Below are positions 928 through 62,416 of a DNA stretch of 64,000 nt, in pieces. The stretch is from the IMG/VR virus record IMGVR_UViG_3300037797_000149, positions 1-64,000 of that record; one strand, given 5' to 3'. How positions within the stretch are numbered: the first letter of the stretch is position 1; each line of letters starts with the position of its first letter. The DNA is from a virus. The notes beneath the pieces are model-generated. The model had not been told where the DNA came from, did no database searches, and was given only the letters and a program-made list of their open reading frames with translations. Position numbers and translations under genes: made by a program.

Positions 928-1329
928 ATGACTGTAGGACTGTCCGCGGTCAACCTGGCCAACGCCTGGCTCAGCACGCTGCGTGGCGGCGGGAACGGCG
1001 TGAGCTTCACCGCCCCCGCCTCCACCCACGTTAAACTTCACATTGCCGATCCCGGCGCGGCAGGCGCGACCGCTCCCTCGGCCGAGACGGACCGGATGGC
1101 GCTGGAATATGCCGCCCCCTCCGGCGCTTCCATGGCGTCCAGCAACGAGCCGTCCTGGGGACCGTGGGATCAAGGCACGGAGACGATCAGCGACATCAGC
1201 GTGTGGGACGACGCGACAGCGGGGAACTTCCTATACTCGGCGGAACTGACGACGCCCCGCGAAGTGCAGGACAACGACACGCTGAATTTGACGTCCGTCA
1301 CGTTCGCTCTCACGCCGGTCGCCGCATAA
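928..1329 (+). CDS. minor tail protein (hypothetical)
   Basis: 133-aa ORF with RBS GGAAGGA upstream of ATG 928. Assigned by its position among tail-fibre genes. Confidence 0.5.
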   Translation: MTVGLSAVNLANAWLSTLRGGGNGVSFTAPASTHVKLHIADPGAAGATAPSAETDRMALEYAAPSGASMASSNEPSWGPWDQGTETISDISVWDDATAGNFLYSAELTTPREVQDNDTLNLTSVTFALTPVAA

Positions 1330-1359
1330 ATTCGACAACACGATCGGCGGGATCCCACC

Positions 1360-3381: not shown

Positions 3382-4751
3382 TGGCATTCACCGTCACCGC
3401 CCGGCATTCGGCCAACTCCGTCGCCACCGCCATCGCCGCGCAGGCCACCGACTCCGTCGCCCCGAGCGCGGACAGCCTGCTGCTGATATTCGCGGGCGCC
3501 CAGCGCGATCAGCACACCACGTCTGAGACCTGGTCGGCGTCGGGAGGGTCGCTGACGTGGACCCAGACCGCCGTGACCTCCGCATTTCCATGGGACACCA
3601 GCGCCGACTTCTCCATCAGCGCTGCCCTGCATCGGGCGGTCATCGGAGGTTCGCCTTCGGCGTTCGCCATCACCTGCGATGCCTGGGCCGACGCGTCGGA
3701 AGGCTTCTACGCGATCGTCGGTTGTGACGTTACCGGGCACAATGCGGCGTCCCCGATTGTGCAGTCCGCCACCAATGGGGCCGCCCTGACCGGCGGTGAC
3801 GCCCACTCCGGTTCGGTGACGCTCGGTACCACGCCCGTCGTGGGAAATCTGGTGGTGGTCTCGTTCTCTTCCAGCGCCGACGACGACGGTGGATTCGCCA
3901 CCCCCACATTCGGCGGACGGGCGATGACACAGTTGTTCAATCAGGCCACACTGTGGACACAGTCGAGCCTGTGGTTTCTGGTGGTGGACGGCACCGAAAC
4001 CGACGACACGATCACATGCGCCGATCTCGGACAGCAGGTCGGCAACTATGCCGCCATCGCGATCGAGATAGAGGAGGCACCTGGCGATGTCGCTGCCGAG
4101 ACCACACTGACCGCTGTTGCCGGCATCACGGCCGAACCGGTCCTGACGGCCGAATCAACAGCAACCATCGCCGCTGTTGCTGCTGTCACCGCCGAAGCCT
4201 CGATTCCAGGCGTCGTCGACGCTGAAGCCGCGATCACCGTTACCGCCGCCATCACCCCCGGCGCCACGGTGACCCCGGGGGGAACGCCGGGAGTCGCCGT
4301 CGAAGCGGACATCACCGCTGAGGCCGAAGTCCAGACCCCGCAATCGGTGGATGCGGAGGCGACTGTCACCGTCACCGCAGCGATCACCGCTGGAGCCGCC
4401 ATCACCCGCGCCGTCCAGGCGAGTGTGAGCGCTGTCGCGACCATCTCCGCAACGGTGGGATCGGGGGAAGAGGCGCTCATCATCCGCTCGATCTCCGGGA
4501 TTTTCGGAAATCCCGGACCGGTCGTGACCGGCATCGCCAAGAAGGCCACGCCGCTGTTGAACGGAACCGCGTTCTCCCACAAGGTGACCGGGGTGCGGGC
4601 CTTCTCCGTCGTGGTGACGGGTGTGGCCGCGCCCACTACAGTGGTGACAGGCGTTCGAGGTGTCCAAGATGAGCAGATGAGCGGTCCCCGAGTCGGACGG
4701 GTCGTCACCGGGCCGAAAACCAGCCGGGTCGTCACCGGGCCGAAAGTCTAG
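3381..4751 (+). CDS. minor tail protein with Ala/Thr/Val-rich internal repeats
   Basis: 456 aa; ATGA overlap with the upstream gene. Repeated 'VDAEA(A/T)(I/V)TVTAAIT(P/A)GA' and a C-terminal 'VVTG' periodicity. Confidence 0.6.
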   Translation: MAFTVTARHSANSVATAIAAQATDSVAPSADSLLLIFAGAQRDQHTTSETWSASGGSLTWTQTAVTSAFPWDTSADFSISAALHRAVIGGSPSAFAITCDAWADASEGFYAIVGCDVTGHNAASPIVQSATNGAALTGGDAHSGSVTLGTTPVVGNLVVVSFSSSADDDGGFATPTFGGRAMTQLFNQATLWTQSSLWFLVVDGTETDDTITCADLGQQVGNYAAIAIEIEEAPGDVAAETTLTAVAGITAEPVLTAESTATIAAVAAVTAEASIPGVVDAEAAITVTAAITPGATVTPGGTPGVAVEADITAEAEVQTPQSVDAEATVTVTAAITAGAAITRAVQASVSAVATISATVGSGEEALIIRSISGIFGNPGPVVTGIAKKATPLLNGTAFSHKVTGVRAFSVVVTGVAAPTTVVTGVRGVQDEQMSGPRVGRVVTGPKTSRVVTGPKV

Positions 4752-6868: not shown

Positions 6869-7123
6869 ATGCCAGATGAGCCGACACTCGGTGAGGCCCT
6901 GCGACGATTGGACAAGATCGAACAGCGCATCGATAGCCGTCTGGTATCGCTGGGAACTTATAGTGCCGAACGTAAGCACGATCAGGACGCCGTTACAGAA
7001 GTGTCGCGGCGTACGACCAAGCTCGAGAATCGTATCGACTGGGCTTATCGGGCGGCGGTGACAGGGATCATCATGCCGGTAGTGGTCGGGGTCATGCTTT
7101 TCCTTCTGTTGAGGGCGCGATGA
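6869..7123 (+). CDS. membrane protein, holin-like (single C-terminal TM)
   Basis: 84 aa with a coiled N-terminus and a hydrophobic 'VTGIIMPVVVGVMLFLLL' followed by RAR. Directly downstream of the endolysin. Confidence 0.5.
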   Translation: MPDEPTLGEALRRLDKIEQRIDSRLVSLGTYSAERKHDQDAVTEVSRRTTKLENRIDWAYRAAVTGIIMPVVVGVMLFLLLRAR

Positions 7124-7845
7124 TGATGATGGCGAGGGTACGGCGGCAGCGTGGCAACATCGCGTTCTATGCGGCGGTGGTCGTGTTGTCGGTCATTGTC
7201 GCGCTCGTCATCTCCGAGGTCGTCAAGCTGTCCGATCGCGCCGATACCGCCGCCAGCGCTTCGGCTGAGCGGCAGCAGACCGTGGAAGACTTGTCAGCCG
7301 ACGTCGAGGCGCTGCGTCACCAGGTGTCCGGTTTGGGCGAGGAGCCGGTGGCGCCGGACCCGGACGAGCGCACCGACGATCTGACGCCGATCCCCGGACC
7401 TGAAGGCAAACAGGGTGAACGCGGGCCGCGGGGTTTTCCGCCGACACGGCAACAAGTGATGAATGTCGTGGTTCCCGTCGTCGCTCAGTACCTGATCGAG
7501 AATCCCCCGCCGGCCGGAGCGGATGGTGAAGATTCCACGATTCCGGGTCCTCAAGGCGAGCCCGGCGCGGACTCTACGGTTCCTGGACCGGCGGGTGCCG
7601 ACGGTGAGGATTCCACGATTCCGGGTCCTCAAGGCGAACCCGGCGAAGATTCCACGGTTCCAGGTCCGCCAGGCGATGACGGCGACGATGGAGATGATGG
7701 CCGTGGCATCGCGGCTGTGACCATCGAGGGCGACGGCCGGGAGTCGTGCGAATTGGTCGTACACTACGACGACGAAGATGAAACCGAAGATCGGATAGGA
7801 ATCAACCCACTCATTTGCATCCGCTCCAACGAAGGAGAATCATGA
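7120..7845 (+). CDS. membrane-anchored protein with collagen-like G-X-Y/acidic repeats
   Basis: 241 aa. N-terminal TM 'IAFYAAVVVLSVIVALVI'. Repeats 'GADGEDSTIPGPQGEPG(A/E)DSTVPGP' at about nt 7516-7700. Confidence 0.65.
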   Translation: MMMMARVRRQRGNIAFYAAVVVLSVIVALVISEVVKLSDRADTAASASAERQQTVEDLSADVEALRHQVSGLGEEPVAPDPDERTDDLTPIPGPEGKQGERGPRGFPPTRQQVMNVVVPVVAQYLIENPPPAGADGEDSTIPGPQGEPGADSTVPGPAGADGEDSTIPGPQGEPGEDSTVPGPPGDDGDDGDDGRGIAAVTIEGDGRESCELVVHYDDEDETEDRIGINPLICIRSNEGES

Positions 7846-8186
7846 CCACATTCAAGATTTTCGGCCGCGAGCCGGCGGCCTTCATCGCACTGATCGGATC
7901 GCTTCTCACTGTCGTCGCGGCACTCAACGTGGAATTCCTGTCGGCAGGCCAGGCAGCCGCCATCACCGGTCTGGTGTCGGGTCTGGTGATGGCCTGGGCT
8001 ACACGACCTCTGGCGCCGTCACTTCTGACCGGGGCGTGGACGGCCGCTGTGGCGCTGTTCGCCGAATACGGTCTTGACCTGTCCGATCATCTGGTGGCGT
8101 CGGTGTCCGCGTCCATGCTGGCGTTGTTCAGCTTCATTACCCGGCAACAGGTTTCCCCGCAGAACACGGCGATCACCAGGTCCTAG
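7842..8186 (+). CDS. multi-pass membrane protein, holin candidate
   Basis: ATG 7842 with RBS GAAGGAG and an ATGA overlap. About 4 hydrophobic segments. Last gene before the terminator. Confidence 0.55.
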   Translation: MTTFKIFGREPAAFIALIGSLLTVVAALNVEFLSAGQAAAITGLVSGLVMAWATRPLAPSLLTGAWTAAVALFAEYGLDLSDHLVASVSASMLALFSFITRQQVSPQNTAITRS

Positions 8187-8223
8187 CCCGGCAACCTGAC
8201 TGAATTGCGCTGACGGGGAATGT

Positions 8224-8265
8224 GAAATCCCCCGATGGGAAGCCGCCTCTCCATCGGGGGATTTC
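8224..8265. terminator. bidirectional rho-independent terminator
   Basis: Perfect 15-bp inverted repeat gaaatcccccgatgg / ccatcgggggatttc with a 12-nt loop and T-rich flanks. It lies between convergent gene blocks. Confidence 0.8.
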
Positions 8266-8308
8266 TTTGCGTCTAAGAGTGCCACTGTGCCAGCACTCGG
8301 CATGTGGT

Positions 8309-8488
8309 TCAGCCCGCACCCGAGACCCGGAACGGGCGGTCGTCAGGGCCGGATTCGTCCCTAGGTGCAGGCGGTCGTTTCTGGGGGTCCGCCGGTTCTT
8401 GAACGACTCCGGAATCTTCTTGCACCTTGGCGGCGTTACCCGTCACCAGGCGTTGCTTGAGCCTATTCAGGTGGCTTTTGTCGGCCAT
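8309..8488 (-). CDS. hypothetical small protein (59 aa)
   Basis: ATG at 8488 with GGGAGAA upstream; overlaps the 3' end of the upstream gene. Just below the ORF-track cut-off. Confidence 0.35.
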   Translation of the reverse strand: MADKSHLNRLKQRLVTGNAAKVQEDSGVVQEPADPQKRPPAPRDESGPDDRPFRVSGAG

Positions 8489-8801
8489 GCGATTCGTTCT
8501 CCCAGAATTCGATTATTTTTCCCATCGAGTTCGCGAACTTGATCTCGCGTCTCACCGTTGGCGGGATACGGTCGTCGACAACGACGACGTACACACGCTG
8601 GGACTGCCTTATCTTAGCCAGCTGCGCGGTTTCTAGTATGTCCATTTGGTCCCCGGTGATGGGGGTACCCTCAGGCGGGAACACGGGTGTGTACACCACA
8701 CATCCGGCGAGCGTGAGATCCAGTTCGACTTTGGTTATCTCAGCTTGGAATCGGTGTGACCCGCAAATGGTGACAATTGCGGGGTTGTCATCAGTCGCCA
8801 T
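8463..8801 (-). CDS. nucleoside 2-deoxyribosyltransferase-like (Rossmann-like 'CGSxRF' family) protein
   Basis: ORF 8463..8837 trimmed to ATG 8801 (RBS GGAG). 'ICGSHRF...LAG..V...KI..S..V.VV' is paralogous to the C-terminus of 44821..45363. Confidence 0.45.
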   Translation of the reverse strand: MATDDNPAIVTICGSHRFQAEITKVELDLTLAGCVVYTPVFPPEGTPITGDQMDILETAQLAKIRQSQRVYVVVVDDRIPPTVRREIKFANSMGKIIEFWENESHGRQKPPE

Positions 8802-8817
8802 GGTTTTCACTCCTGTC

Positions 8818-8937
8818 TTAGTTCCAGTGGGTTGCACGTGTCTGCAGTATGAAGATCATCAGAGAGACGACGGCCGCGGCCAGGCTGAGAGCCAGGATCG
8901 CCAGAAGTGCCAGTACGATGCCCTGCTCGATCGTCAT
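8818..8937 (-). CDS. small membrane protein (39 aa)
   Basis: MTIEQGIVLALLAILALSLAAAVVSLMIFILQTRATHWN has one clear TM segment. Not in the ORF track because of its size. Confidence 0.4.
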   Translation of the reverse strand: MTIEQGIVLALLAILALSLAAAVVSLMIFILQTRATHWN

Positions 8938-9070
8938 TCGCGGGCCGTCCCGTCATATCCGAAGTCGGGGAGTATGCACACCGACAAGACGAGAGGTGGG
9001 GCCGCAACAAGCGAGGGTTTTAACCCCCTACACCCGCTGGCTGCGGCTTGGCTCCACCGGTAATAGTCCC

Positions 9071-9099
9071 AGACTAACGCGATCATGTCGGGACGTCAA
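9071..9099 (-). promoter_or_regulatory. sigma-70-like promoter candidate (TTGACG-17-TAGTCT)
   Basis: Read on the minus strand in the 180-bp gap upstream of 8818..8937. It lacks the TGn extension of the main promoter family. Confidence 0.35.
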
Positions 9100-9118
9100 C
9101 CTGTTCTTCCCAGGGCTG

Positions 9119-9394
9119 TCAAAATTCTGCCGGAGTAGACCTGTCTATTCGGAGTCCCCCGCGATTGAGGCCCGGCGGAGTGTCGAAAACGTTGACCCCA
9201 GTGGCCCCGCTGGGCGCGACGGCCCTTTCGTTCTCGGCGATCCACGTCCGGGCCGACTCCGTTGTGCGTCTCATGGCGGCCCGTATCTGTTCGGTGGTGG
9301 CGGGGTCCTCAGTGCTGAATTCTTCTGTGATGGTGACGTTTCGCTCACCACATCGGATGATGATGGTCACTTCGTTGCTCACATCATTGCTCAT
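9119..9394 (-). CDS. hypothetical protein
   Basis: ORF 9119..9403 trimmed to ATG 9394: GGAGG lies 8 nt upstream and there is an ATGA overlap with the upstream stop. Confidence 0.5.
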   Translation of the reverse strand: MSNDVSNEVTIIIRCGERNVTITEEFSTEDPATTEQIRAAMRRTTESARTWIAENERAVAPSGATGVNVFDTPPGLNRGGLRIDRSTPAEF

Positions 9395-9939
9395 GGGGTC
9401 CATCCTCCAATCTTCTCCCGGGCGAAGGCGCCCGCGTATCCCACCAGGCGGGAATCCGCGATCCCAGGGGCACCTGGTGCCTGCGCGGGCGGGGTTTCAG
9501 GCCGGCCCCTGGCAAAGTCCCGCGACCAGTCCATGAACCCTCCGGGAGCGTAAATGCGGTCCGGGTCATAGAAGACCACATTCCACCGTTCCACCTCGGC
9601 CAGGGTCAGTGTCTGGACGTCGAGCTCGGCTGTAGCGTTCGAGGTGATCTGGTGGAAGATGGACACTGAGGCGCGCTCGGTTTCACGGTCGACGATGTGG
9701 TCGATGTCCGGATGCTCAGCGACGTAGGAATGCAGGAATTCCACCGCGTCCACGGCGGAGTACAATCCCCGGGCGGCCAGGATCCGCTTGGCCTCACTGA
9801 TCGGGTCGACCACGGCTTCCACCACTGGCGCCGGATCGTCCGATTCAGCCACTGCAGGCGTTGCAGATGTCGCTTTTGCGATCGGGACCGGGGACTTTTT
9901 CGCCGGCCTCTTCTTGGCGGTTGTCTTCCGTGCGGTCAT
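9391..9939 (-). CDS. hypothetical protein (basic Ala/Lys-rich N-terminus)
   Basis: ORF 9391..10161 trimmed to ATG 9939, which forms an ATGA overlap with the stop of 9936..10661. Confidence 0.55.
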   Translation of the reverse strand: MTARKTTAKKRPAKKSPVPIAKATSATPAVAESDDPAPVVEAVVDPISEAKRILAARGLYSAVDAVEFLHSYVAEHPDIDHIVDRETERASVSIFHQITSNATAELDVQTLTLAEVERWNVVFYDPDRIYAPGGFMDWSRDFARGRPETPPAQAPGAPGIADSRLVGYAGAFAREKIGGWTP

Positions 9940-10661
9940 AGGTCGGTCACCTTCTTCTCGTTTCGTATCGGGGAACCGGAAAGCAAGGCGCCCCAGGTCG
10001 CGGTGAGGTTGGTCCGTACGATCTCGTCCAGCCGGTTTATGCCAAGATACTGGTACATGTCGATGGTCTTCTTTGAGACGTAACAGATCTGGGTCGCGGA
10101 ATCGGAGATCGTGCGTTCGGCGAACTGGTTCTCCGCTTCCGACCAGGACCTTTGCAGCCACACCACAGTGGCCGCCTGGGAGAGGTCCAGCCCGATCGGA
10201 ACCGACGAGATGTTCTGAACCAGGAATGGTAATTCGCCCGAACTGAACAAATCGGCGATTCTCTTCACCGCCTCGGGATTTTGGGTAATTCCGGGATCGA
10301 TTTGCCGGACATTGCCCCGGCTGGCCGCCAGGGAGAAGATTTTCCGGTGAATTATCGTTGTCAGCTGGCTGGACTGGGTGAAATACACGACCGGGCCGGG
10401 GCTGTACATCGAATCATTTACAGCCCGTGATCCGGACGATCGTCCCCAGGACGACGACAGCTGAACCTCTCCGGTGGTCTTCCAATGTCTGAAATCTCCG
10501 GTTGCGGAGGCGAACGCGGACAGCACCGTCAGGTAAGCGATGCCGTGTTTAGACCCGAGAATGTCAACACCGGCGTTCCGGGTCAGGGAGAGGCATAGCT
10601 TCCGGTACTCCGCTGCCTGCTTTTCCGACATGGGGGTAGTCCTGTACTCCATTGCGGTCAT
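9936..10661 (-). CDS. helicase C-terminal-domain-like protein (no Walker A/B visible)
   Basis: 'FLVQNISSVPIGLDLSQAATVVWLQRSWSEAENQFAERT' resembles SF2/SNF2 motifs V-VI. Start is ATG 10661 (ATGA overlap). Confidence 0.4.
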   Translation of the reverse strand: MTAMEYRTTPMSEKQAAEYRKLCLSLTRNAGVDILGSKHGIAYLTVLSAFASATGDFRHWKTTGEVQLSSSWGRSSGSRAVNDSMYSPGPVVYFTQSSQLTTIIHRKIFSLAASRGNVRQIDPGITQNPEAVKRIADLFSSGELPFLVQNISSVPIGLDLSQAATVVWLQRSWSEAENQFAERTISDSATQICYVSKKTIDMYQYLGINRLDEIVRTNLTATWGALLSGSPIRNEKKVTDL

Positions 10662-10885
10662 TCCCACGTCGCCAGAGATTCAATGTTCCCGCCGGCGTCG
10701 AGGAAAGTGAACGTCACCACGGGATTGCGGACTTCCAGGTCGAAATCTTCGATCAGATCTCGCAGGTCCATCTTGCCGGCAATCATCTCGTCGGCAAGAT
10801 GTGCGGCATCGACATGACGTCCCAGCTGGAATTCCCTGGCGGTGTCCTTGACCTCGATTTGGATCTTCAAGACTCGCTCACTCAT
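10658..10885 (-). CDS. hypothetical protein
   Basis: 75-aa ORF, start/stop coupled to both neighbours. Confidence 0.55.
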   Translation of the reverse strand: MSERVLKIQIEVKDTAREFQLGRHVDAAHLADEMIAGKMDLRDLIEDFDLEVRNPVVTFTFLDAGGNIESLATWE

Positions 10886-11406
10886 CAGAACGAGGCCCCC
10901 TCAATAGTCTGCTGTGGCGCGACGCCGGACAGGCCCGCTTCAACCAGCACCCGGCGGGAGATGTCGGTCATGTACTGGTACCCGGAATCGTCGATGGACC
11001 AGCAGGCCGCGACGAGCTCGGGAGCTCCGGGCGCGAAGACCACCGAGGAGCGGTCGACCTCAGCGGCGATCAGTTCCTCGTCGCTGAGTCCGGCGACTGC
11101 GGGTGGGTGACACCGCGTGCACGGATGGTCGCCTTCCTCGAGTTCTGACGCGGGCATCACGACACCGTAGCCACAGGCGCTCGTGCCCTGGTTCAGTGCG
11201 TGGTAGACGTCAGAGCATCCGACCCGCTCGAGGGCGTAACCGCCATCGTCGAGGCGGTATATCGTCATCTCGGTCCAGCGCAGGCCGTCGGCATCGCGCA
11301 GCCGCCCTCCGCGCCGGCGGCCAGAGTCGCGGGTGGAACCGTGTGCCAGCTGTTCACCGTGGATGACGATGGCTTGGTCCGAATTGTAGATCGTGAATGC
11401 GGTCAT
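10885..11406 (-). CDS. hypothetical protein
   Basis: 173-aa ORF with RBS AGGAGG upstream of ATG 11406. A promoter lies just upstream. Confidence 0.6.
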   Translation of the reverse strand: MTAFTIYNSDQAIVIHGEQLAHGSTRDSGRRRGGRLRDADGLRWTEMTIYRLDDGGYALERVGCSDVYHALNQGTSACGYGVVMPASELEEGDHPCTRCHPPAVAGLSDEELIAAEVDRSSVVFAPGAPELVAACWSIDDSGYQYMTDISRRVLVEAGLSGVAPQQTIEGASF

Positions 11407-11445
11407 GAAGGGCCTCCTGGAGGTCTGGTGTCGTTGTCGATCGTT

Positions 11446-11474
11446 ACTGTATCAGAGTCGGGGGAGTGTGTCAT
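11446..11474 (-). promoter_or_regulatory. promoter, conserved family (ATGACA-17-TGaTACAGT)
   Basis: The minus strand reads atgacacactcccccgactcTGATACAGT. Member of the tGACAC...TGnTACAGT family. Confidence 0.55.
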
Positions 11475-11697
11475 CCCGCAGCATCCTTCTCACCAGCGAA
11501 GTCAAGATCGTGACATCGGTGAATTTGATGCGATGAGTGTTGCGAACGGCGGCCGACCGCCACGACCCTGGGGACACTTCCCGGGCGTACACGGCGCCGA
11601 AAGACCCCCGGTTGGCGGTGACCTTGCACAGAACGCCATCATCGTCCCACATCACCGTGTACAGGTATTTGGTTACGAAGACCCTGAATTTCCCCAC
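11452..11697 (-). CDS. hypothetical protein
   Basis: 81-aa ORF with a GTG start that overlaps the WhiB gene's 3' end. Confidence 0.45.
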   Translation of the reverse strand: MGKFRVFVTKYLYTVMWDDDGVLCKVTANRGSFGAVYAREVSPGSWRSAAVRNTHRIKFTDVTILTSLVRRMLRDDTLPRL

Positions 11698-48473: not shown

Positions 48474-51260
48474 ATGACAGACGTCACACACCGCAATCCA
48501 TTCGCCGCCGCACCCGCCTATCGCGAAAAAGGCTGGGAAGGGACGGTCCCGGTGGCCTATGAGGGCAAGACGCTGCTGGTGAAATCGTTCACCGGCAGGC
48601 AGGGGAAATGGCCCAGCGACGAACAGGTGAGTAGAAGGATCGCGAAGGGGGAGGCGAACGGGGGAAAGCTTGAGAACATCGCGCTGCGGCTGCCCGCCGG
48701 GGTCGTCGGGGTGGACGTGGACGATTATGGAGGCAAGAACGGAGCCCGATCGCTGCGCGAGCTCGAAGCCGAATACGGGGAACTGCCGGAAACGGCCCGG
48801 TCGAGCGCCCGCGGATTCGACGGGGCCGGGGGAATCAGGCTGTTCCGGTTGCCCGCGGAGCACGCGGGGGCAGAACTGGCCGGCGCGCCCGCCGACGGGA
48901 TCGAGATCATCCAATTCCACCATCGCTACGCCATCGTCTGGCCGTCGGTGCACCCGAAGACCAAGACCCGGTATGAGTGGGAGAGCGGGGAAATCCCGGC
49001 GGTGGATGAGTTGGCCGAACTGCCTTCGGGGTGGGTTCTCGGGCTGAGCGCCACCAGCACTGGGGGGCGCAAGGAAGCCGGCGCCATCGAGGCCGGCGAG
49101 AAGGACGTTGCGGCGTATTTCGAGGCGATACGGGACGGCTCAGGGCAGATGTGCCGGGCTGTGGAGCGGATGGCGGACAGGCTGATCGAAGGGGCGTCAC
49201 GGGAACGCGGGAACGCCCACGACGCCGTCAACCGCGACATCCTCGCACTCATCGAGATGGGCTACCAGGGCCATCGCGGCGTGGCGTCGGCACTGGGGAA
49301 AGGCCGGCGGATATTCATCGAGACCGCCTCGGACCGGTCGACCAAGGCCGAACTGGCCGCCGAATGGCGGCGGATGGCCGCTGGGGCGCTAGCGATCAAG
49401 CAGGCGGAGAAGGACGGGCGGGGACGGGAGATGGAGCACGTCTGCGCCTGTGACCATCCTGGGAAACTGGGGCCGTTCGGTGAGGTCGTCGACGATGTGG
49501 TTCCCGGGGCTGCGGCGGCCGGCGACGGAGCGGGCAGCAACGGCGAGAGCGGCCCACCGGGGGCGCTGTACGACCTGGTGAGCGATGAAAGCGGTGATGA
49601 GGCGGCACGGGCCGCGCTGGTGGCCGCCGGAGTCACACGGGCCGAATTGGACGGTCTGGCGAAGGTGGACGCCAGCGAATGGGACCGGGGAGGGTTCACC
49701 GACCGGTGGATTGCGGAGAGTTTCGCCTACAACGTGTGCGCACCGCGGTTCTGCTGGGTGGCTGCGTTCGGGTGGCTGCGCTTCGACGGGAAGAAATGGT
49801 CGAGATGTTCGGACGAGCGCGTCATGGAGATGGCCGGCCGCTGGGCGCGGACCAAGCTCGCGGAGCGGGTCAAAGCCGGCGACCTGGATTCCTCGAAATT
49901 CAAGGGCTGGAAGACGATGCTCTCGGAGAAACGGCAGCGCGACGTGGTCAAGCTGGCCCGTGGGCTGACGGAAGTCGACGGGGCGCTGTTCGACGCCGAC
50001 CCGGACCTTTTGAACTGCCAGAACGGGGTTGTGGATCTGCGGACCGGGAGGATCATGGAGCACGCGCCGGACTTCTACATGCGCAAGATCACGAAATGTG
50101 CGTACGTGGAGGGGGCCGAACACGAGGACTGGAACAAAGCCTTGACCGCACTACCGCCCGACGTCGCGATGTGGATGAAAGCGCGTTACGGGCAGGCGAT
50201 CACGGGTCATATGACGCCAGACGATTTGCTGATCGTGCAGAACGGGACCGGGTCCAACGGGAAGAGTTCGGTGTTCGCCGGGATGCAGTCTCTCGGGGGT
50301 TATATCGGGTTGCTGTCGGACCGGGTCATCTTCGCCGACCCGAGAGATCATCCGACCGAACTCATGGATCTGCAAGGACTGCGGATGGCGCTGATCGAAG
50401 AGACGCTGGAAACGCGGCGACTCAACGTACAGCGACTGAAGAAACTAATCGGGACCACCCAAGTGACCGCCCGGCACATCCGGAAAGACTCGGTCACCTT
50501 CGATGCCACGCATTCAATTTTCCTGTCCACGAACTACCGTCCGGCCGTCGAGGAGACCGATGACGGCACATGGCGCCGGCTGGCGCTGGTGACGTTCCCG
50601 TACACGTTCATCAAGCCGGGCGAGACACTGAGCACCGGCCTCGGCGTGGGGATGGACGAAGCGGGGGACTACAGCGACTCCCGGGACGAATGGCGGCCGG
50701 GGGACGCGGGGCTGCGGGAACGACTACATCACGGTGACAGTGGCAGGCATGAGGCCGCTCTTGCCTGGATGGTGGCCGGCGCACGGCAGTGGTACGACGC
50801 CGACAAACAGATGCCTGAAATGCCGATCACGGTGGCCATGGACACCCGGGAATGGCGGGCGGAGTCAGACGTGGTGATGGCCTACTGCGACGAACGGCTG
50901 GAATTCGAGCCGGGGTACCACGTGGCCAGCGGTGATCTGTTGCTGGACTTGAACGGGTGGCTGGAGAACCACGGGCACAAACCCTGGTCGGCCAAATTGA
51001 TGGCAACCCGGTTCGAGAATAGTAGCGAGGTACGCAAAAACCGGGTACGGCAAGAGCGCGTAAGGAAAGATCAGAAGACCGGTGGAGGGGTCTTGTCACG
51101 GCCCGACATGGGCTTTGAATCCAAAACTCTGTACATCCACCTATCGGATCTCGGAAAACAGTACCGGGCGTGGTCAGGAGTGCGCTTCGCCAACGATACC
51201 GTCTCTACACCGGACAAGATTTCACCGGAAACACACGATGATGACCCAAACCCCTTCTGA
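48474..51260 (+). CDS. bifunctional DNA primase-polymerase / D5-type SF3 helicase
   Basis: 928 aa. N-terminal prim-pol ('VGVDVDDYGG', 'HHRYAIVWPSVHP'). Central D5_N-like region. Walker A 'GTGSNGKS'. Confidence 0.8.
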   Translation: MTDVTHRNPFAAAPAYREKGWEGTVPVAYEGKTLLVKSFTGRQGKWPSDEQVSRRIAKGEANGGKLENIALRLPAGVVGVDVDDYGGKNGARSLRELEAEYGELPETARSSARGFDGAGGIRLFRLPAEHAGAELAGAPADGIEIIQFHHRYAIVWPSVHPKTKTRYEWESGEIPAVDELAELPSGWVLGLSATSTGGRKEAGAIEAGEKDVAAYFEAIRDGSGQMCRAVERMADRLIEGASRERGNAHDAVNRDILALIEMGYQGHRGVASALGKGRRIFIETASDRSTKAELAAEWRRMAAGALAIKQAEKDGRGREMEHVCACDHPGKLGPFGEVVDDVVPGAAAAGDGAGSNGESGPPGALYDLVSDESGDEAARAALVAAGVTRAELDGLAKVDASEWDRGGFTDRWIAESFAYNVCAPRFCWVAAFGWLRFDGKKWSRCSDERVMEMAGRWARTKLAERVKAGDLDSSKFKGWKTMLSEKRQRDVVKLARGLTEVDGALFDADPDLLNCQNGVVDLRTGRIMEHAPDFYMRKITKCAYVEGAEHEDWNKALTALPPDVAMWMKARYGQAITGHMTPDDLLIVQNGTGSNGKSSVFAGMQSLGGYIGLLSDRVIFADPRDHPTELMDLQGLRMALIEETLETRRLNVQRLKKLIGTTQVTARHIRKDSVTFDATHSIFLSTNYRPAVEETDDGTWRRLALVTFPYTFIKPGETLSTGLGVGMDEAGDYSDSRDEWRPGDAGLRERLHHGDSGRHEAALAWMVAGARQWYDADKQMPEMPITVAMDTREWRAESDVVMAYCDERLEFEPGYHVASGDLLLDLNGWLENHGHKPWSAKLMATRFENSSEVRKNRVRQERVRKDQKTGGGVLSRPDMGFESKTLYIHLSDLGKQYRAWSGVRFANDTVSTPDKISPETHDDDPNPF

Positions 51261-58068: not shown

Positions 58069-58659
58069 ATGGATGAGATGAAGTTTTCGCCACAACTGGT
58101 GCGGTCGGGCAACAGGAGTCTGGGTTTCGACGGATGCCTTCTGGCGTCGGTGTCGTCTAAACGCCCTCTGGCGGCCCGGTGGACGGATCTGGAGTTGTAC
58201 CGGATCGGATTGGACGGCCTGCCCTCACATGACCCGTCGTACGTGTTCTGCCGCACTGGACTGTCCCGGGTCTACCACACCGCGGATTGCCCCCAGGTTC
58301 CGCCTCGCCTGCCGTTCGGGCATGAGATGGCCGAGCAGGTGGAGTTCTCCGAACTCGTCGCTTGCCACGTGTGCGCCCCTGTGAGACCTCCCGAGCCGGG
58401 TGGGTCGGGGGTTTTCGCCACCGATTTCGCCACGTCGCATCGTTTCGAGGTGACCCGGCGCCGGGCCTGGTTGTTCGCCGGTGCTCCCGAGTTGCTGGAT
58501 TTCCTGTCCACGTCCCGCTCGCAGGACGATCGGAAGGTGCCTATGGGTGCCGCGGGCTTGCCCAGGTTGTCTTCGGAGTTGCTGTTCACCGCGGCCCGTC
58601 TCGATCCCGGCCTGGCCGGCGCTCTCTCACCTTCGACTGGGGTGACCGGCCGTGTCTGA
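58069..58659 (+). CDS. hypothetical protein (first gene of packaging/structural block)
   Basis: ORF 57985..58659 trimmed to ATG 58069 (GAGGTGAGGA upstream). Confidence 0.5.
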   Translation: MDEMKFSPQLVRSGNRSLGFDGCLLASVSSKRPLAARWTDLELYRIGLDGLPSHDPSYVFCRTGLSRVYHTADCPQVPPRLPFGHEMAEQVEFSELVACHVCAPVRPPEPGGSGVFATDFATSHRFEVTRRRAWLFAGAPELLDFLSTSRSQDDRKVPMGAAGLPRLSSELLFTAARLDPGLAGALSPSTGVTGRV

Positions 58660-59629
58660 TGATATTTTCGAGACCGCGACGTCTTCCCGGCTGCCGTTCC
58701 CGCACTGGCTGGCGCTGCACCATGATCCGTCCAGCCGGTTCTGGGAAATCGCCCATCTGGTGCTGTCCGGGGGTCCGGAGTCGATGTGGGCGGGCCGTTT
58801 CGATTTGACGCCTGAGATCATCGCCGGTGACGTGAAACTCCTGTACGCCTCTGGGAATCCGGCGGTGACTTCCGATCACATGGAGCAGTGCGCCGCTGCG
58901 ATGGCCGAATATCACGACAACGCCCCCACGGTGGCCCAGATGGTGCGGATGCGCGCCGGGGCAGAGAAGGATTTCGGCGCTGACGAATCCCCCCAGGGAG
59001 CGGCCGGCCGGGTGCGCTCGGCCATGCGTGAATCGTTCACATCCCGGGGTTTGACGGTGAGCAGCGGCATCGACGAGCCGGTCTCGGAAGCGGACGGCTC
59101 GGATGTGGCCGAGTTCACCGGGCCTTCCCTGGTGTTGCGCACCAAGTGCAGGCACGTGTCGGCCAAGACCGGTGTCATGTGCCGGAGCATCGTGCCGGCC
59201 GGATCGGATTTGTGCACTCGGCATGGTGGCCGGATCTACACCGTGGAAGAACTGGCCAACATTCACCGGGCCACCCGGGAGAAGATCGTGGCGGCCAGTG
59301 AGGCGGCGGTGGACACTCTGGTGGACCTGCTGAACTCCCCCAACGACATGGTGCGGCTGCGAGCGTCGGAGGCGGTGCTGAACCGGGCGGGCCTGCCCGA
59401 GGGTGTGGAGATCACGGTGGTGTCATCGACGTCCGGCGGGTCTACCCCGTCCCAGTTGGTGGCCGAGAAGCTGGAGCGCCTCGCCGAGGGCACGCGGGCG
59501 ATCCGGTCTCCCGCTTCGGAATTCGATGATGACTCGTCCCCCGCTTCACAGCCCGGCCGGTCATCAGATTCTGATTCTGATCCTGATTCGGATGTGGTGG
59601 ACGCCGAAGTGGTCGAGGACGGGAGGTAG
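58652..59629 (+). CDS. terS: putative terminase small subunit
   Basis: Lies immediately upstream of TerL. 'LLNSPNDMVRLRASEAVLNRAG' resembles a motif seen in actinophage small terminases. Acidic Ser/Asp tail. The call rests mostly on position. Confidence 0.45.
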   Translation: MSDDIFETATSSRLPFPHWLALHHDPSSRFWEIAHLVLSGGPESMWAGRFDLTPEIIAGDVKLLYASGNPAVTSDHMEQCAAAMAEYHDNAPTVAQMVRMRAGAEKDFGADESPQGAAGRVRSAMRESFTSRGLTVSSGIDEPVSEADGSDVAEFTGPSLVLRTKCRHVSAKTGVMCRSIVPAGSDLCTRHGGRIYTVEELANIHRATREKIVAASEAAVDTLVDLLNSPNDMVRLRASEAVLNRAGLPEGVEITVVSSTSGGSTPSQLVAEKLERLAEGTRAIRSPASEFDDDSSPASQPGRSSDSDSDPDSDVVDAEVVEDGR

Positions 59630-59634
59630 CGCAC

Positions 59635-62343
59635 GTGGCTGGGACACTGGTCCTCCCCAAGCTGGTCGCCCCGGCCGATGCCGGGCGGTGGTTCCCGGCG
59701 AATGCGGATCTGGCACTGGCCGACCGGGTGGCCATGCTGGACCCGGACACCCGGGTCAAGACGTTGACCACGGGTGACGGGAAGCCGATCGACCCGGACA
59801 CGCTGCTTTACGATTTCAGATTCTGGGGGCGCCCGAGCCAGCTTTGCGTCTACGATTCCAGCGCGCACATCACCGCCATGATCTCCGGAAGGGGTGGAGG
59901 CAAGACAAGATCATTGTCCGAGGTGGCGCACCATCTGGCCGAGATGATGCCGGGCAGCCGAGGGGCGCTGATCGCCCGCACCGCCGCCGACGTGCGTGAC
60001 ACTTTGATCAGGGGTGACAGTGGGATCATCGAGACCGCCCATCCCGACGCCCGGCCCAGGTATGTGGCCAACAACCGCTCTCTGACCTGGCCTAACGGGA
60101 CGACGGCGACGTCGTTTTCGGCGCAGCAGCCTGATGGTCTGAGGGGTCCACAGTTTAATTGGGCACTGTGCATCGCCGCAGGCCAGAAGGTGAGAGTGGA
60201 ACGAGGGTTCGTACCAATCGAGGATGTGACCAGTGACGACAAGGTACTGGTGCGCGACGGGCGGTACGTCCCGCTTCGGCAAGGTGCGCGACTGACTCGC
60301 CGCCGGACTGAGGTTATCAGGATCGCTACTGCGACTCGCACACTGGACCTGACGCCGGACCATAGAGTCGCTACGCCTGAAGGTTGGGTCGAGGCTCGTG
60401 AACTCCGGCCCGGTGATACTATCCTGACATGTCAAATTCCGACCCAATACCCAGTGCCGCACCAGGCTGGTTCACCTTCGATGACCAGCGATGGTACCTC
60501 AGGAAAAAGTTCAATCACTACGCCAATCGAAAAGGTGAACTCCTTCATCGAGAAGTCTGGAAATCGGTCAATGGGCCGATTCCAGAAGGCATGGTCATTC
60601 ATCACAAAGACCATGATCCGACGAACAACCGGCTCGGCAATCTGGAACTCCGAACCGATGACGATCACAGACGGCATCACACGTCAGTACGAGAAGACGA
60701 AGCTTGGGTCGAGCAGTACAAGGCTGAAACCAGATCGGCCAACGCCAGGAAGCTCTGGGATGCGCGTCGAGAAGATCCGGATGAGCGCATCTGCCAGCAC
60801 TGCGGGGAAGTTTATACATCGGTTGGCATGGTCTCGCTTTTCTGTTCTGCTCGATGCCGGAATCTGGCTGGACCTGCGACACGTCGCGGTGAGTATGCCA
60901 AGACGGTCGCATCGGAATGCCTTGGTTGCGGCGAAAAGTTCGCTTCGACGAGCACGCGAGCCAAATACTGCTCCAATCGATGCAAACGGCGTCTCCAGAA
61001 CCGGCAACGATCTGAACTTCGGAAGTCTGAAGACAATCGCATCTGCCCGGTCTGCGGCTCCGGCAATTTCGGCAATCGCCGGTCCGATGCCGTCTTCTGT
61101 TCAACCCATTGTCAAGCACGAGACGCTCGTATCCGTCGATTCCGCGCCAAGGCAGGACGTGTATGACCTGACCACGTCCGATCCAGATTTTCCGGAGTTC
61201 TTCGCCAGCGGCATACTCGTCCACAATTGTGACGAGGTAGCGGCCTGGCCGACCCGCCCGCCATCTGGCTCGATCGCCAATGCCTGGGACAACGTGAAGC
61301 TGGCCACCCGGCTGGGGAACAACCCGCAGATCTTCGTGGCGACCACGCCGCGCCGGGTGCCGGTGGTGATCGAGCTGCTGAACGCCACCCACGCCGATCC
61401 GTCCAAGTGCCTGGTGGTGCGGGGGTCGACGATGGCGAACCGGCATCTGGCGCAGGTGTACCGCGACACCGTGGTGGCCATGTACGCCGGGACGACGCTG
61501 GCCCAGCAGGAGCTAGAGGGCGAACTGCTGGGGGACATCGACGGCGCGCTGCTGACGATGGACAAGATTTCCAGGGTGAGCGATCCGGACGAGATCGCCC
61601 GGTTGCAGGATATGAACTATCTGCGCAGCAAGTATCCGGTGCGCATCGTGGGGGTGGACCCGTCGACCAGCGACAAGCCGCGAGACGAGTGCGGGATCGT
61701 GGTGGTGGCCGCGACGGCGGAGCGCAATCCGCACAAGCGCAAATGTGTGGTGCTGGCGGATGAGTCGCTGCACGGGTCGCCGGGTGTGTGGGCGGCCAGG
61801 GTGGCGGAGGTGGCCCGCGAATACGAGGCGTTCGTGGTGGTGGAGGACAACCAGGGCGGCGAGATGGTGCGCATGGTGATCCGGGCGCACGATGAGCATG
61901 TGCCGGTGGTGCTGGCGCGCAGCGACGAGTCGAAGGTGGTGCGGGCCGAGCCGGTCGTTTTGGCTTTTGAGAAGTCGAATGTGCGTCATCTGGATTTTTT
62001 CGGAGAACTCGAAACTCAGTGGACGTCCTGGGTGCCCGACGAGAGCCTGTACTCCCCCGATCGCCTGGACGCGTCGGTGATCGCGATTTCGGCGTCACTG
62101 GTGGCGCAGCCCAGCGGAATGGGCGGGCGGATCCGGGTGGGCAGCCGGCAGCGCGGAGCGGCTGGCAAGCGGAAGGTCCGCGGGCTGAAGCAGCACGAGA
62201 AGTCGATTGCGTCCACGCCGGCGGCCAACGCTTTCGCCGCGGCGCCCAGGATCAGGTACGTGAAGCAGTCGCCGGCCGAAAAACGACGTGCCCGAAAATC
62301 CGCTTCGAGGCGGCTGGACGGATTCGGTTCGCCGTATCCGTGA
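59635..62343 (+). CDS. terL: terminase large subunit, interrupted by an intein (60169-61227)
   Basis: Walker A 'GRGGGKT'. Exteins rejoin as '..FNWAL/CDEVAAWP' (Walker B). The nuclease half contains 'IVGVDPSTS..ECGIVVV'. GTG start 8 nt after GGGAGG. Confidence 0.85.
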   Translation: MAGTLVLPKLVAPADAGRWFPANADLALADRVAMLDPDTRVKTLTTGDGKPIDPDTLLYDFRFWGRPSQLCVYDSSAHITAMISGRGGGKTRSLSEVAHHLAEMMPGSRGALIARTAADVRDTLIRGDSGIIETAHPDARPRYVANNRSLTWPNGTTATSFSAQQPDGLRGPQFNWALCIAAGQKVRVERGFVPIEDVTSDDKVLVRDGRYVPLRQGARLTRRRTEVIRIATATRTLDLTPDHRVATPEGWVEARELRPGDTILTCQIPTQYPVPHQAGSPSMTSDGTSGKSSITTPIEKVNSFIEKSGNRSMGRFQKAWSFITKTMIRRTTGSAIWNSEPMTITDGITRQYEKTKLGSSSTRLKPDRPTPGSSGMRVEKIRMSASASTAGKFIHRLAWSRFSVLLDAGIWLDLRHVAVSMPRRSHRNALVAAKSSLRRAREPNTAPIDANGVSRTGNDLNFGSLKTIASARSAAPAISAIAGPMPSSVQPIVKHETLVSVDSAPRQDVYDLTTSDPDFPEFFASGILVHNCDEVAAWPTRPPSGSIANAWDNVKLATRLGNNPQIFVATTPRRVPVVIELLNATHADPSKCLVVRGSTMANRHLAQVYRDTVVAMYAGTTLAQQELEGELLGDIDGALLTMDKISRVSDPDEIARLQDMNYLRSKYPVRIVGVDPSTSDKPRDECGIVVVAATAERNPHKRKCVVLADESLHGSPGVWAARVAEVAREYEAFVVVEDNQGGEMVRMVIRAHDEHVPVVLARSDESKVVRAEPVVLAFEKSNVRHLDFFGELETQWTSWVPDESLYSPDRLDASVIAISASLVAQPSGMGGRIRVGSRQRGAAGKRKVRGLKQHEKSIASTPAANAFAAAPRIRYVKQSPAEKRRARKSASRRLDGFGSPYP
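60169..61227 (+). mobile_element. intein (Hint domain split by a ~230-codon linker)
   Basis: Cys1 (TGC 60169-71), block B 'LTPDH', blocks F/G 'VYDLTT...FFASGILVHN' (His-Asn 61222-27) and +1 Cys (TGT 61228-30). Confidence 0.8.
60429..61166 (+). CDS. HNH (HNH_3-type) endonuclease with three zinc-ribbon repeats, nested out of frame inside the TerL intein
   Basis: 245-aa ORF in the -1 frame relative to TerL. 'HREVW...GPIPEGMVIHHKDHDPTNNRLGNLEL' plus 3x CxxCG..(F/Y)CSxxC. An in-frame TGA lies 4 codons upstream of the ATG. Confidence 0.8.
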   Translation: MSNSDPIPSAAPGWFTFDDQRWYLRKKFNHYANRKGELLHREVWKSVNGPIPEGMVIHHKDHDPTNNRLGNLELRTDDDHRRHHTSVREDEAWVEQYKAETRSANARKLWDARREDPDERICQHCGEVYTSVGMVSLFCSARCRNLAGPATRRGEYAKTVASECLGCGEKFASTSTRAKYCSNRCKRRLQNRQRSELRKSEDNRICPVCGSGNFGNRRSDAVFCSTHCQARDARIRRFRAKAGRV

Positions 62344-62350
62344 TCCCCGC

Positions 62351-62392
62351 CCACTTTCACCCCCACCTCGTCCACTTTCACCCCCACCTCGT
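62351..62392. repeat. 21-bp tandem direct repeat x2 (ccactttcacccccacctcgt)
   Basis: Two exact adjacent copies starting 8 nt after the TerL stop, just upstream of promoter 62417..62445. Confidence 0.85.
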
Positions 62393-62416
62393 CCTATCCC
62401 TGTCCTTTCGCACATT

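Follow-up and report, generated by a model that had tools for sequence, protein, structure and literature searches.

An HNH endonuclease gene nested out of frame in a mini-intein of a phage large terminase, and a family of similar elements

Introduction

Same-strand, out-of-frame homing endonucleases within inteins, including inteins of the large terminase (TerL), were described by Gosselin, Arsenault & Gogarten (bioRxiv 10.1101/2025.01.02.630785). The nucleases are of the Endonuclease_7 type. Their work covers actinobacteriophages, calls the architecture rare, includes antisense LAGLIDADG and VSR-like homing endonucleases, and proposes invasion of inteins by free-standing homing endonuclease genes (HEGs) as the origin. 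Here we analyze 64,000 nucleotides (nt) of viral DNA (positions 1 to 64,000 of IMG/VR record IMGVR_UViG_3300037797_000149, hereafter the window), in which the TerL gene contains a mini-intein with an HNH endonuclease gene in a different reading frame. We think it likely that a mini-intein and an out-of-frame, separately translated homing nuclease together form a composite selfish element within this essential phage gene.

Like the TerL inteins of Gosselin et al., the window's intein is a mini-intein with canonical splicing halves, and the host-frame translation of its nuclease segment has no recognizable fold. We translated the Keitabear intein from their supplement and found its nested open reading frame (ORF) in the same phase, with a match to Endonuclease_7 (PF02945, 9e-20). 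That nuclease has about 130 amino acids (aa), whereas the one in the window has 245 aa and combines an HNH_3 domain with three zinc modules. The Gosselin inteins are from actinobacteriophages, whereas the HNH family of the window occurs in phages of Clostridium, Acinetobacter and Rhodobacteraceae and in gut and environmental viromes.

A cyanobacterial dnaX intein contains an out-of-frame LAGLIDADG homing endonuclease, for which secondary invasion was proposed (Phillips, DeSimone & Gogarten, bioRxiv 10.64898/2026.09.14.751524); these authors trace the idea of the non-canonical intein to Gorbalenya 1998. The dnaX intein shares with our HNH family an overlapping endonuclease ORF in which omega (the ratio of nonsynonymous to synonymous substitution rates, dN/dS) is low, and high in the host frame. 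It differs in having a cellular host gene, a LAGLIDADG enzyme and a single extein, rather than phage terminase and portal genes, an HNH enzyme and many insertion sites. As expected of a non-canonical intein, the window has a complete same-strand nuclease ORF between the splicing halves, in another frame, and an uninterrupted host frame.

The ShiLan domain is a "hidden" third-frame HNH in mycobacteriophage DNA methylases, for which no ribosome-binding site was found (Arsenault et al., Genes 2025, PMC11855218). It resembles the window in its I-HmuI-like HNH with flanking zinc fingers, third-frame location, stop-free host ORF and sporadic, homing-like spread. However, ShiLan has no detectable splicing domains and the insert probably stays in the methylase, whereas canonical Hint halves are present here, and Shine-Dalgarno (SD) motifs are enriched in our HNH family.

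In fractured phage-type genes, a terminase among them, the two halves of a split intein enclose a free-standing HEG (Dassa et al. 2009, PMC2677866). As in the window, an HEG of free-standing type with its own translation signals lies between intein halves, which supports the HEG invasion model. The fractured genes consist of two host ORFs and need trans-splicing, whereas the host frame here is continuous and cis splicing is predicted. Canonical bifunctional inteins, with in-frame HNH or LAGLIDADG domains, share with the window the Hint insertion point, the presumed homing cycle and conserved active-site targets. Their nuclease is part of the intein polypeptide; that of the window is 2 nt out of phase, with a stop codon upstream of its start.

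An earlier note on this DNA, made from the sequence alone, knew of no description of such an arrangement; the preprints cited above had already described out-of-frame nucleases in inteins, TerL inteins among them. We found no account of TerL or portal inteins with a nested member of the HNH_3/zinc-ribbon family, nor of inteins in terminases of the TJE1 or phiCD119 type, in a literature search in which subscription journals were not covered. What appears to be new is the presence of the HNH_3/zinc-ribbon family in a known architecture, its breadth, its several host genes and sites, its invariant phase and the lack of an in-frame version.

A mini-intein in the large terminase

The TerL precursor, intein included, is encoded by the plus-strand ORF at 59635..62343 (902 aa, GTG start). 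In this frame, Pfam identifies Terminase_6N, Terminase_6C and Hint_2 above the curated cut-off (29.8-32.1 bits, cut-off 28.4), and Intein_splicing below it. Five TerL homologues that lack an intein (L096, 64% identical, and L097-L100) were aligned with the protein. The alignment gap corresponds to exactly TerL aa 179-531, bordered on the left by "...RGPQFxxx" and on the right by the Walker-B motif "[C/A/G]DE...W". It supports the junctions that the earlier note had read by eye: an N-extein of aa 1-178 (59635..60168, +, ending "...LRGPQFNWAL"), a class-1 intein of 353 aa (60169..61227, +, Cys1 to His-Asn), and a C-extein of aa 532-902 plus the stop codon (61228..62343, +), which includes the Terminase_6C match. 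Without the intein, the fused exteins would read ...CAGTTTAATTGGGCACTG up to the junction and TGTGACGAGGTAGCG... after it.

All expected catalytic residues of an intein were identified, as the note had proposed for this Hint-type insertion. Cys1 is encoded at 60169-71, the TxxH motif is found in "LTPDH" (60349-60363), the terminal His-Asn of "...GILVHN" ends at 61227, and Cys+1 (61228-30) is followed by "DEVAAWP". We built hidden Markov models (HMMs) of the N- and C-terminal halves from five seed inteins. The N-terminal splicing half, with blocks A and B (60169..60429, +), matches its model at 109 bits over TerL aa 179-267 and also matches Hint_2. The C-terminal half, with blocks F and G, "...VYDLTT...FFASGILVHN" (61102..61227, +), matches at 62 bits (TerL aa 490-531), and at its 5' end it shares sequence with the final codons of the HNH ORF. 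The C-extein begins with Cys+1 and the acidic pair of Walker B (C-D-E, 61228..61236, +), which align to the [C/A/G]DE of intein-less TerLs. Thus, the active site of the ATPase is split by the intein, and "CDE" begins with Cys+1. The alignment, profiles and motifs show a predicted class-1 mini-intein immediately ahead of the Walker-B Cys-Asp-Glu of the large terminase.

Between the halves, the TerL frame encodes a stop-free "linker" of 240 aa (60430..61149, +), which is the off-frame translation of the HNH gene. Even with the threshold relaxed to E<=0.1, Pfam gives it no match, and its Ser content is high (14.6%, vs 7.1% in the exteins), in line with its off-frame look in the earlier reading. 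The intein was also modeled in the TerL frame with AlphaFold2 (AF2). The alignment of TerL relatives (A3) was unusable for this purpose, as the inteins of those relatives are at other sites, and the alignment used had five sequences. Because the resulting pLDDT value (the model's predicted local distance difference test score) is only 35, we infer rather than observe that the linker is a disordered loop.

The nested HNH gene

The coordinates given earlier for the displaced ORF were also correct. It lies at 60429..61166 (+), with ATG at 60429 and TGA at 61164-66, and encodes 245 aa in phase 2 relative to TerL, so that TerL codons begin at HNH codon position 2 (a 2 nt offset). A TGA in the HNH frame (60414..60416, +) is located 4 codons upstream of the start, and the open stretch of this frame begins at 60417. 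Before the HNH domain, 60429 is the sole start codon in its frame. As the note had recognized from this stop and the lack of a slippery heptamer, the HNH is not a read-through domain of the intein.

The protein matches HNH_3 (PF13392) with 60.4 bits (curated cut-off 24.8, E 1.3e-16) and PHROG 15471, "HNH endonuclease", at 1.8e-24; Pfam gave no match to PF01844 or PF02945. The HNH_3 catalytic core, "LHREVW...IHHKDHDPTNNRLGNLEL", spans residues 38-82 (60540..60674, +). Zinc module 1 (CxxC...FCSxxC, residues 122-143; 60792..60857, +) has invariant Cys columns, pLDDT >90 and a YacG/FCS-like form. Zinc module 2 (residues 164-185; 60918..60983, +) was identified from invariant Cys columns, the AF2 model and the motif count, and zinc module 3 (residues 206-228; 61044..61112, +) from the motif count. 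The third module is common to the window and the same-site relatives L148 and L149. H58, H59, N67, N71 and H80 are invariant in 49 family sequences, and the window retains them all, along with every other family-invariant catalytic and zinc-binding residue.

The AF2 model of the HNH protein has a mean pLDDT of 81, with values >90 across the HNH core and zinc modules, and the zinc modules resemble YacG/FCS-type fingers. The top Foldseek match is I-HmuI (1u3e). T4 endonuclease VII was not among the top 50 structure matches, and a profile of the HNH against PDB sequences gave nothing significant (I-HmuI, E=0.21). The predicted nuclease would be of the homing type, HNH_3 and apparently I-HmuI-like. 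These data show a complete putative HNH_3 gene, with three zinc modules, between the splicing halves at the usual endonuclease insertion point.

Distribution of the family

A scan of IMG/VR gave 492 confirmed HNH relatives, and the best 80 were fetched for locus counts. Among these best 80 of 492 loci, 66 have the HNH nested in an ORF of 585-1,237 codons, all in the same phase, and 14 are free-standing; none is in frame with a host ORF and none is in the other phase. A tblastn search of GenBank phages with the window HNH found matches inside the annotated terL genes of Tetrasphaera phage TJE1, Clostridium phage phiCDHM19, Acinetobacter phage Highwayman and Rhodobacteraceae phage MD07. All four have a stop-free TerL coding sequence, an intein (C...[H/S]N, then C/S after the junction) and a homologous HNH/zinc-ribbon protein in phase 2. 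Among actinophages, only Tetrasphaera TJE1 was matched in this search. Hosts of the family's phages belong to Actinomycetota, Bacillota and Pseudomonadota (including Clostridium, Acinetobacter and Rhodobacteraceae), and further members are from gut and environmental viromes. The loci that share the nested phase range from 31 to 67% in GC content.

The half HMMs identified homologous splicing halves with canonical junctions in nearly all nested loci (~70). The commonest insertion site is the C-terminal nuclease motif, "D.NH^C...HN^CIDA.RY". The Walker-B site of the window, "RGPQF..W^C...HN^CDE[LV]AAW", is also used in L033, L084, L011, L046, P0040 and P0041. Further insertions occur at other TerL sites and in a Terminase_3-family TerL (L069). 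Two portal proteins (Phage_portal_3; L076, 1025-4219, and L026, 619-3129) have a mini-intein and nested phase-2 HNH at the site "...GLNA^C...HN^SS[DE]GE". Some ORFs have more than one intein. In L011 (host ORF 1165-4401) and L046, the Walker-B site and a C-terminal "HDD[FL]" site are both occupied. P0013 (L147) has a P-loop intein and a Walker-B mini-intein in one ORF, and L049 has an in-frame LAGLIDADG intein and a nested-HNH intein in one TerL or TerL-like ORF. In L149, a free-standing HNH_3 gene (818-1471, -) lies directly upstream of terL (1501-4746), which also nests an HNH_3; this locus has two nucleases of one Pfam family.

No in-frame fusion of the HNH family was identified in the best 80 loci, in 120 hits from a word index or in the 150 top-ranked hits of an exhaustive search, in which the family comprises 1,536 clusters at 50% identity (E<=1e-30). 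Longer matches in the exhaustive search were considered as in-frame Hint fusions and rejected; they have a duplicated HNH_3 or extra zinc ribbons, with neither a Hint nor a terminase domain. With the HNH as the sole query, the word-index protein search gave 2 matches, and megablast of the TerL against GenBank phages gave none. Many of the HNH family proteins in the protein collection stem from contigs <1.5 kb. Where a full terL ORF exists, gene callers report just terL, so nested nucleases are systematically under-represented in protein databases.

Many members have 31-40% identity to the window HNH, and for the Hint halves of the window the nearest inteins are at other sites. Co-phylogeny of HNH and splicing halves did not resolve, and the unit may not be strictly co-inherited.

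Stop codons in the host frame

With each TerL codon beginning at the second position of an HNH codon, the TerL frame can be closed only by NTA or NTG ahead of an A-initial HNH codon (or NTA ahead of a G-initial one). The exteins favor codons of this form (GTG 43, GTC 6; CTG 30, CTC 2). The HNH ORF uses GTC and CTC, with zero cases of NTG or NTA before an A-initial codon. The three codon pairs pointed out in the earlier note, CTC or GTC ahead of A-initial codons, are where it had placed them and, set against the extein preference for GTG and CTG, fit stop avoidance.

For the window, we calculated the stops expected by chance under three null models. Synonymous shuffling within the HNH ORF gives 1.05 expected stops and P(no stop) of 0.25, shuffling of codon order gives 2.67 and 0.026, and drawing synonymous codons from extein usage gives 3.09 and 0.003. 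Just 1-3 TerL-frame stops are thus expected over 245 codons, and the expectation of a stop every few dozen codons in the note was overstated for this frame. With P values of 0.25-0.003, the window by itself is weak to moderate evidence for constraint. The remaining out-of-phase forward frame of the segment has 9 stops.

The relatives are far more informative. In phiCDHM19 (31% GC) and Highwayman (39% GC), 5-10 stops are expected and 0 observed (P<=2e-4, down to 0 in 5,000 shuffles). In phiCDHM19, the extein-favored TTA, ATA and GTA are swapped for CTT, ATT and GTT ahead of A-initial codons. As a control we used free-standing homologues (14 IMG/VR loci and Brevundimonas phage Poludnitsa). Host-frame stops number 0 in all 71 nested copies, vs 2-13 (~0.029 per codon) in all 15 free-standing homologues, whereas the third frame is similarly stop-rich in both groups (means 17.0 and 16.3). 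The permutation test suggested in the earlier note thus gives weak to moderate evidence for the window alone, and the low-GC relatives and the 71 stop-free copies bear out the constraint. At the level of the family the case is decisive: comparison with relatives proves that the TerL frame is held stop-free by selection.

It could be argued that the arrangement is an artefact of compensating sequencing indels, or that the frame is open by chance in GC-rich DNA. Indeed, after synonymous shuffling of the window ORF the TerL frame is still open in 25% of cases, and high-GC free-standing homologues have just 2-4 stops in that frame. But the same phase recurs in 71 loci from 31% to 67% GC, with no stops where free copies have 2-13, and chance fails in the low-GC relatives at the P values given above. 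Compensating indels are untenable, given the conservation of the architecture across the 71 loci. A dedicated stop, start and SD bracket the HNH ORF. The Logan assembly SRR12683079, from which a protein identical to the TerL (P0003) derives, is also 100% identical to the window across 6,092 nt, although the sample is possibly not independent. We regard artefact or chance as barely credible.

The choice of phase can also be addressed. In free-standing homologues, the frame used by hosts has ~3x fewer stops than the other frame (fewer in 14/15 loci), and two unrelated nested nucleases, the Keitabear Endonuclease_7 and the ShiLan HNH, are in the third frame as well. This suggests that phase reflects ease of read-through. 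Judging by these sequences, the phase is probably not arbitrary but the cheapest frame for reading through an inserted nuclease gene. Common ancestry of the composite is a second possible reading of the shared phase, and deep phylogeny does not separate the two.

Selection and translation of the nested gene

We calculated dN/dS from eight gut-phage loci, which share 77-97% identity and align almost without gaps. In the TerL frame, values are 0.03 for the N-extein, 0.16 for the intein N half, and 0.05 for the intein C half plus C-extein. For the overlap, dN/dS is 0.11 when read as HNH codons and 1.03 as TerL codons. Here the variable sites move away from the third position of TerL codons to the second, equivalent to the third in HNH codons (117 vs 43 and 55). 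The contrast of 0.11 with 1.03 and the shift of sites indicate that the HNH is a protein under purifying selection. The value of 1.03 also indicates that the amino acid sequence of the linker is unconstrained except for stop avoidance.

In 54/54 non-redundant nested loci, a start codon lies after the upstream HNH-frame stop and before homology begins. In 17/54 of these loci the start follows a strong SD (5-mer or longer, spacing 4-12); control windows, drawn from the matching frame of those host ORFs, have one in 24/1,291 cases (odds ratio 24, p about 1e-14). Independent internal initiation is thus the supported mechanism for the family. We infer, with strong support at the family level, that the predicted HNH nuclease of the window is made separately by internal initiation at ATG 60429. 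The suggestion in the note of a mini-intein that holds a separately initiated, overlapping out-of-frame HNH gene is borne out by the layout, the relatives and the SD enrichment.

Programmed -1 frameshifting from the TerL frame would instead give a fusion of N-extein, Hint-N and HNH, and not a free protein. The HNH is indeed in the -1 frame with respect to TerL, no strong SD precedes it in the window, and X_XXY_YYZ slippery heptamers occur somewhere in the entry window of 10/54 relatives. However, these heptamers are mostly A/T runs, several of them from AT-rich genomes, and the entry window is just 4-12 codons in several loci. The window has no slippery heptamer between 60408 and 60503, and its HNH frame is closed by the stop 4 codons ahead of the ATG. 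Together with the universal start codons and the 24-fold SD enrichment, this makes a frameshift product very improbable.

The evidence presented so far leads to the following model. Ribosomes on TerL would pass through the nuclease gene in the wrong frame, yielding a meaningless Ser-rich linker of ~240 aa that may loop out of the Hint fold. The intein is predicted to splice out itself and the linker, restoring an intact ATPase site, and the sole demand on the linker would be that it contain no stop codon. The HNH nuclease would be initiated on its own at ATG 60429. By analogy with known homing endonucleases, it may nick or cut intein-less terminase alleles near the insertion site in mixed infections, and repair would then copy the whole intein-plus-nuclease unit into the cut alleles.

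Several observations weigh against this model, in addition to the few stops expected in the window. The Intein_splicing match (PF14890) is only 27-31 bits, below the cut-off of 35.8, and the AF2 model of the intein is uninformative. The Foldseek match of the HNH to I-HmuI is weak (E=0.022, low TM score). The motif "WHxSEEG", carried by ~90% of the HNH family, is missing from the window HNH. The start at 60429 has only a weak SD-like GGTGA at 12-nt spacing, and the lineage used for dN/dS is other than that of the window. Finally, a genome-contig scan with the TerL found no close relative; the best match has 59% identity and covers the C-terminal domain only.

Some of these points could mean that the window HNH is a recently dead passenger, unexpressed or inactive and inherited only vertically in an intein that still splices. 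The start without a strong SD and the missing WHxSEEG would both fit, and no close relatives were found that could show purifying selection or recent transfer in the window's lineage. However, the 245-codon ORF is intact in a segment whose other out-of-phase forward frame has 9 stops, and no family-invariant catalytic or zinc-binding residue has been lost. All HNH members at the Walker-B site also lack WHxSEEG, yet their ORFs are intact, and members of the family are under purifying selection. We consider a dead nuclease unlikely, and favor a functional composite.

Mobility and evolutionary status

The spread of the element is sporadic. No intein is present in the nearest TerLs, which have about 510-550 aa and 51-65% identity, and more distant TerLs hold the element, or a mini-intein, at the same site. 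Three allele states were identified at the window's Walker-B site: empty, bare mini-intein, and intein plus HNH. The mini-intein of P0013/L147 has 131 aa and no nested ORF, with flanks "LRGPQGNWAL^C...VLVHN^CDELAAW". P0040/L148 and P0041/L149 have inteins of ~331 aa at this site, with a nested phase-2 HNH_3 ORF and three zinc modules. Because the 131-aa mini-intein without HNH is at the same TerL site, an origin by invasion of a mini-intein stays plausible. The mini-intein may serve as a splice-out "landing pad" for a homing gene of the free-standing HNH_3/zinc-ribbon type, as a group I intron hosts a separately translated HEG.

The composite is present in Terminase_6 TerLs, Terminase_3 TerLs and portal proteins. 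In phages that infect several bacterial phyla, it occupies portal genes as well as two families of TerL, with four or more TerL sites in use. The note had suggested a hypothesized intermediate on the way to bifunctional inteins. With 71 nested copies, no in-frame copy, and several host genes and sites, the arrangement is better seen as a stable state than a transient one. We lean slightly toward the view that out-of-frame nesting is an old, evolutionarily stable and common design, and not a rare, short-lived step toward bifunctional inteins.

The distribution also bears on the alternative raised in the note, that the HNH assists the terminase in DNA packaging, as in cos phages of the HK97 gp74 type, and is not a homing enzyme. 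The HNH is physically within terL, free-standing homologues often adjoin terL or portal genes, and zinc-ribbon HNH proteins beside terminases are known (PMC3592412). However, when the family HMM was run over +/-3 kb around terL, ten intein-less relatives and the locus with a mini-intein alone yielded no copy, and across all 64 kb of the window the nested HNH was its single match. Absence near terL of the intein-less relatives argues against a gp74-like role. In addition, the domain is the homing-type HNH_3 and not PF01844, and the composite occurs sporadically, in portal genes and two unrelated TerL families. A packaging role has, in our judgment, only a slim chance of being correct. On the evidence given above, we rejected sequencing artefact, a chance open frame, a -1 frameshift fusion and a packaging cofactor as explanations.

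Surroundings of the locus

GC dips across the overlap (0.50-0.58 over 60400-61200, vs 0.62-0.70 in the flanks), which the note had judged by eye to be the most AT-rich part of the gene. We identified a 928-aa primase/helicase at 48474-51260 (PHROG 1156, 1e-113), ~8 kb upstream of the terminase, which supports a phage or prophage origin of the window. A 325-aa ORF (58652-59629) ends 6 nt ahead of the TerL start. A GATTCT hexamer repeat (4.5 copies, 59567-59593) encodes its acidic Ser/Asp C-terminal tail, "SDSDSDPDSD". This ORF has no PHROG match and could, by its position, be the small terminase. A perfect 21-nt tandem repeat, CCACTTTCACCCCCACCTCGT (2.1 copies, 62351-62394), is found in the spacer between TerL and the next gene, 8 nt past the TerL stop. 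It could be a regulatory or binding site, and is a candidate only.

A Logan contig (L150) runs beyond the 3' end of the window. It contains a minus-strand block (7062-11621) downstream of terL and before a Mu-F-like head gene. Genes of this block encode a glycosyltransferase, epimerase and methyltransferase (Epimerase_2, Glycos_transf_2, Methyltransf_21, Gly_transf_sug). Cargo between the packaging and head genes is an unusual placement.

Significance

The composite explains ~700 nt of apparent nonsense in an essential packaging gene and flags a nuclease gene that standard annotation misses. As a single locus it is of solid, not exceptional, interest; the family-level pattern merits a systematic survey. 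Mini-inteins that tolerate an arbitrary insert of 200-240 aa are of practical interest for protein engineering. The SD enrichment bears on a question left by the ShiLan authors, the translation of hidden nucleases. The series of empty, mini-intein and nested-nuclease alleles at one TerL site provides a natural series in which to test the idea that splicing comes first and the endonuclease invades later.

The same phase in three unrelated nested nucleases suggests a rule, by which the host reads the frame with fewest stops and overprinted selfish genes persist there. The family extends the class of non-canonical inteins to a different nuclease family, and suggests that this class is common, not rare, in phage terminase and portal genes.

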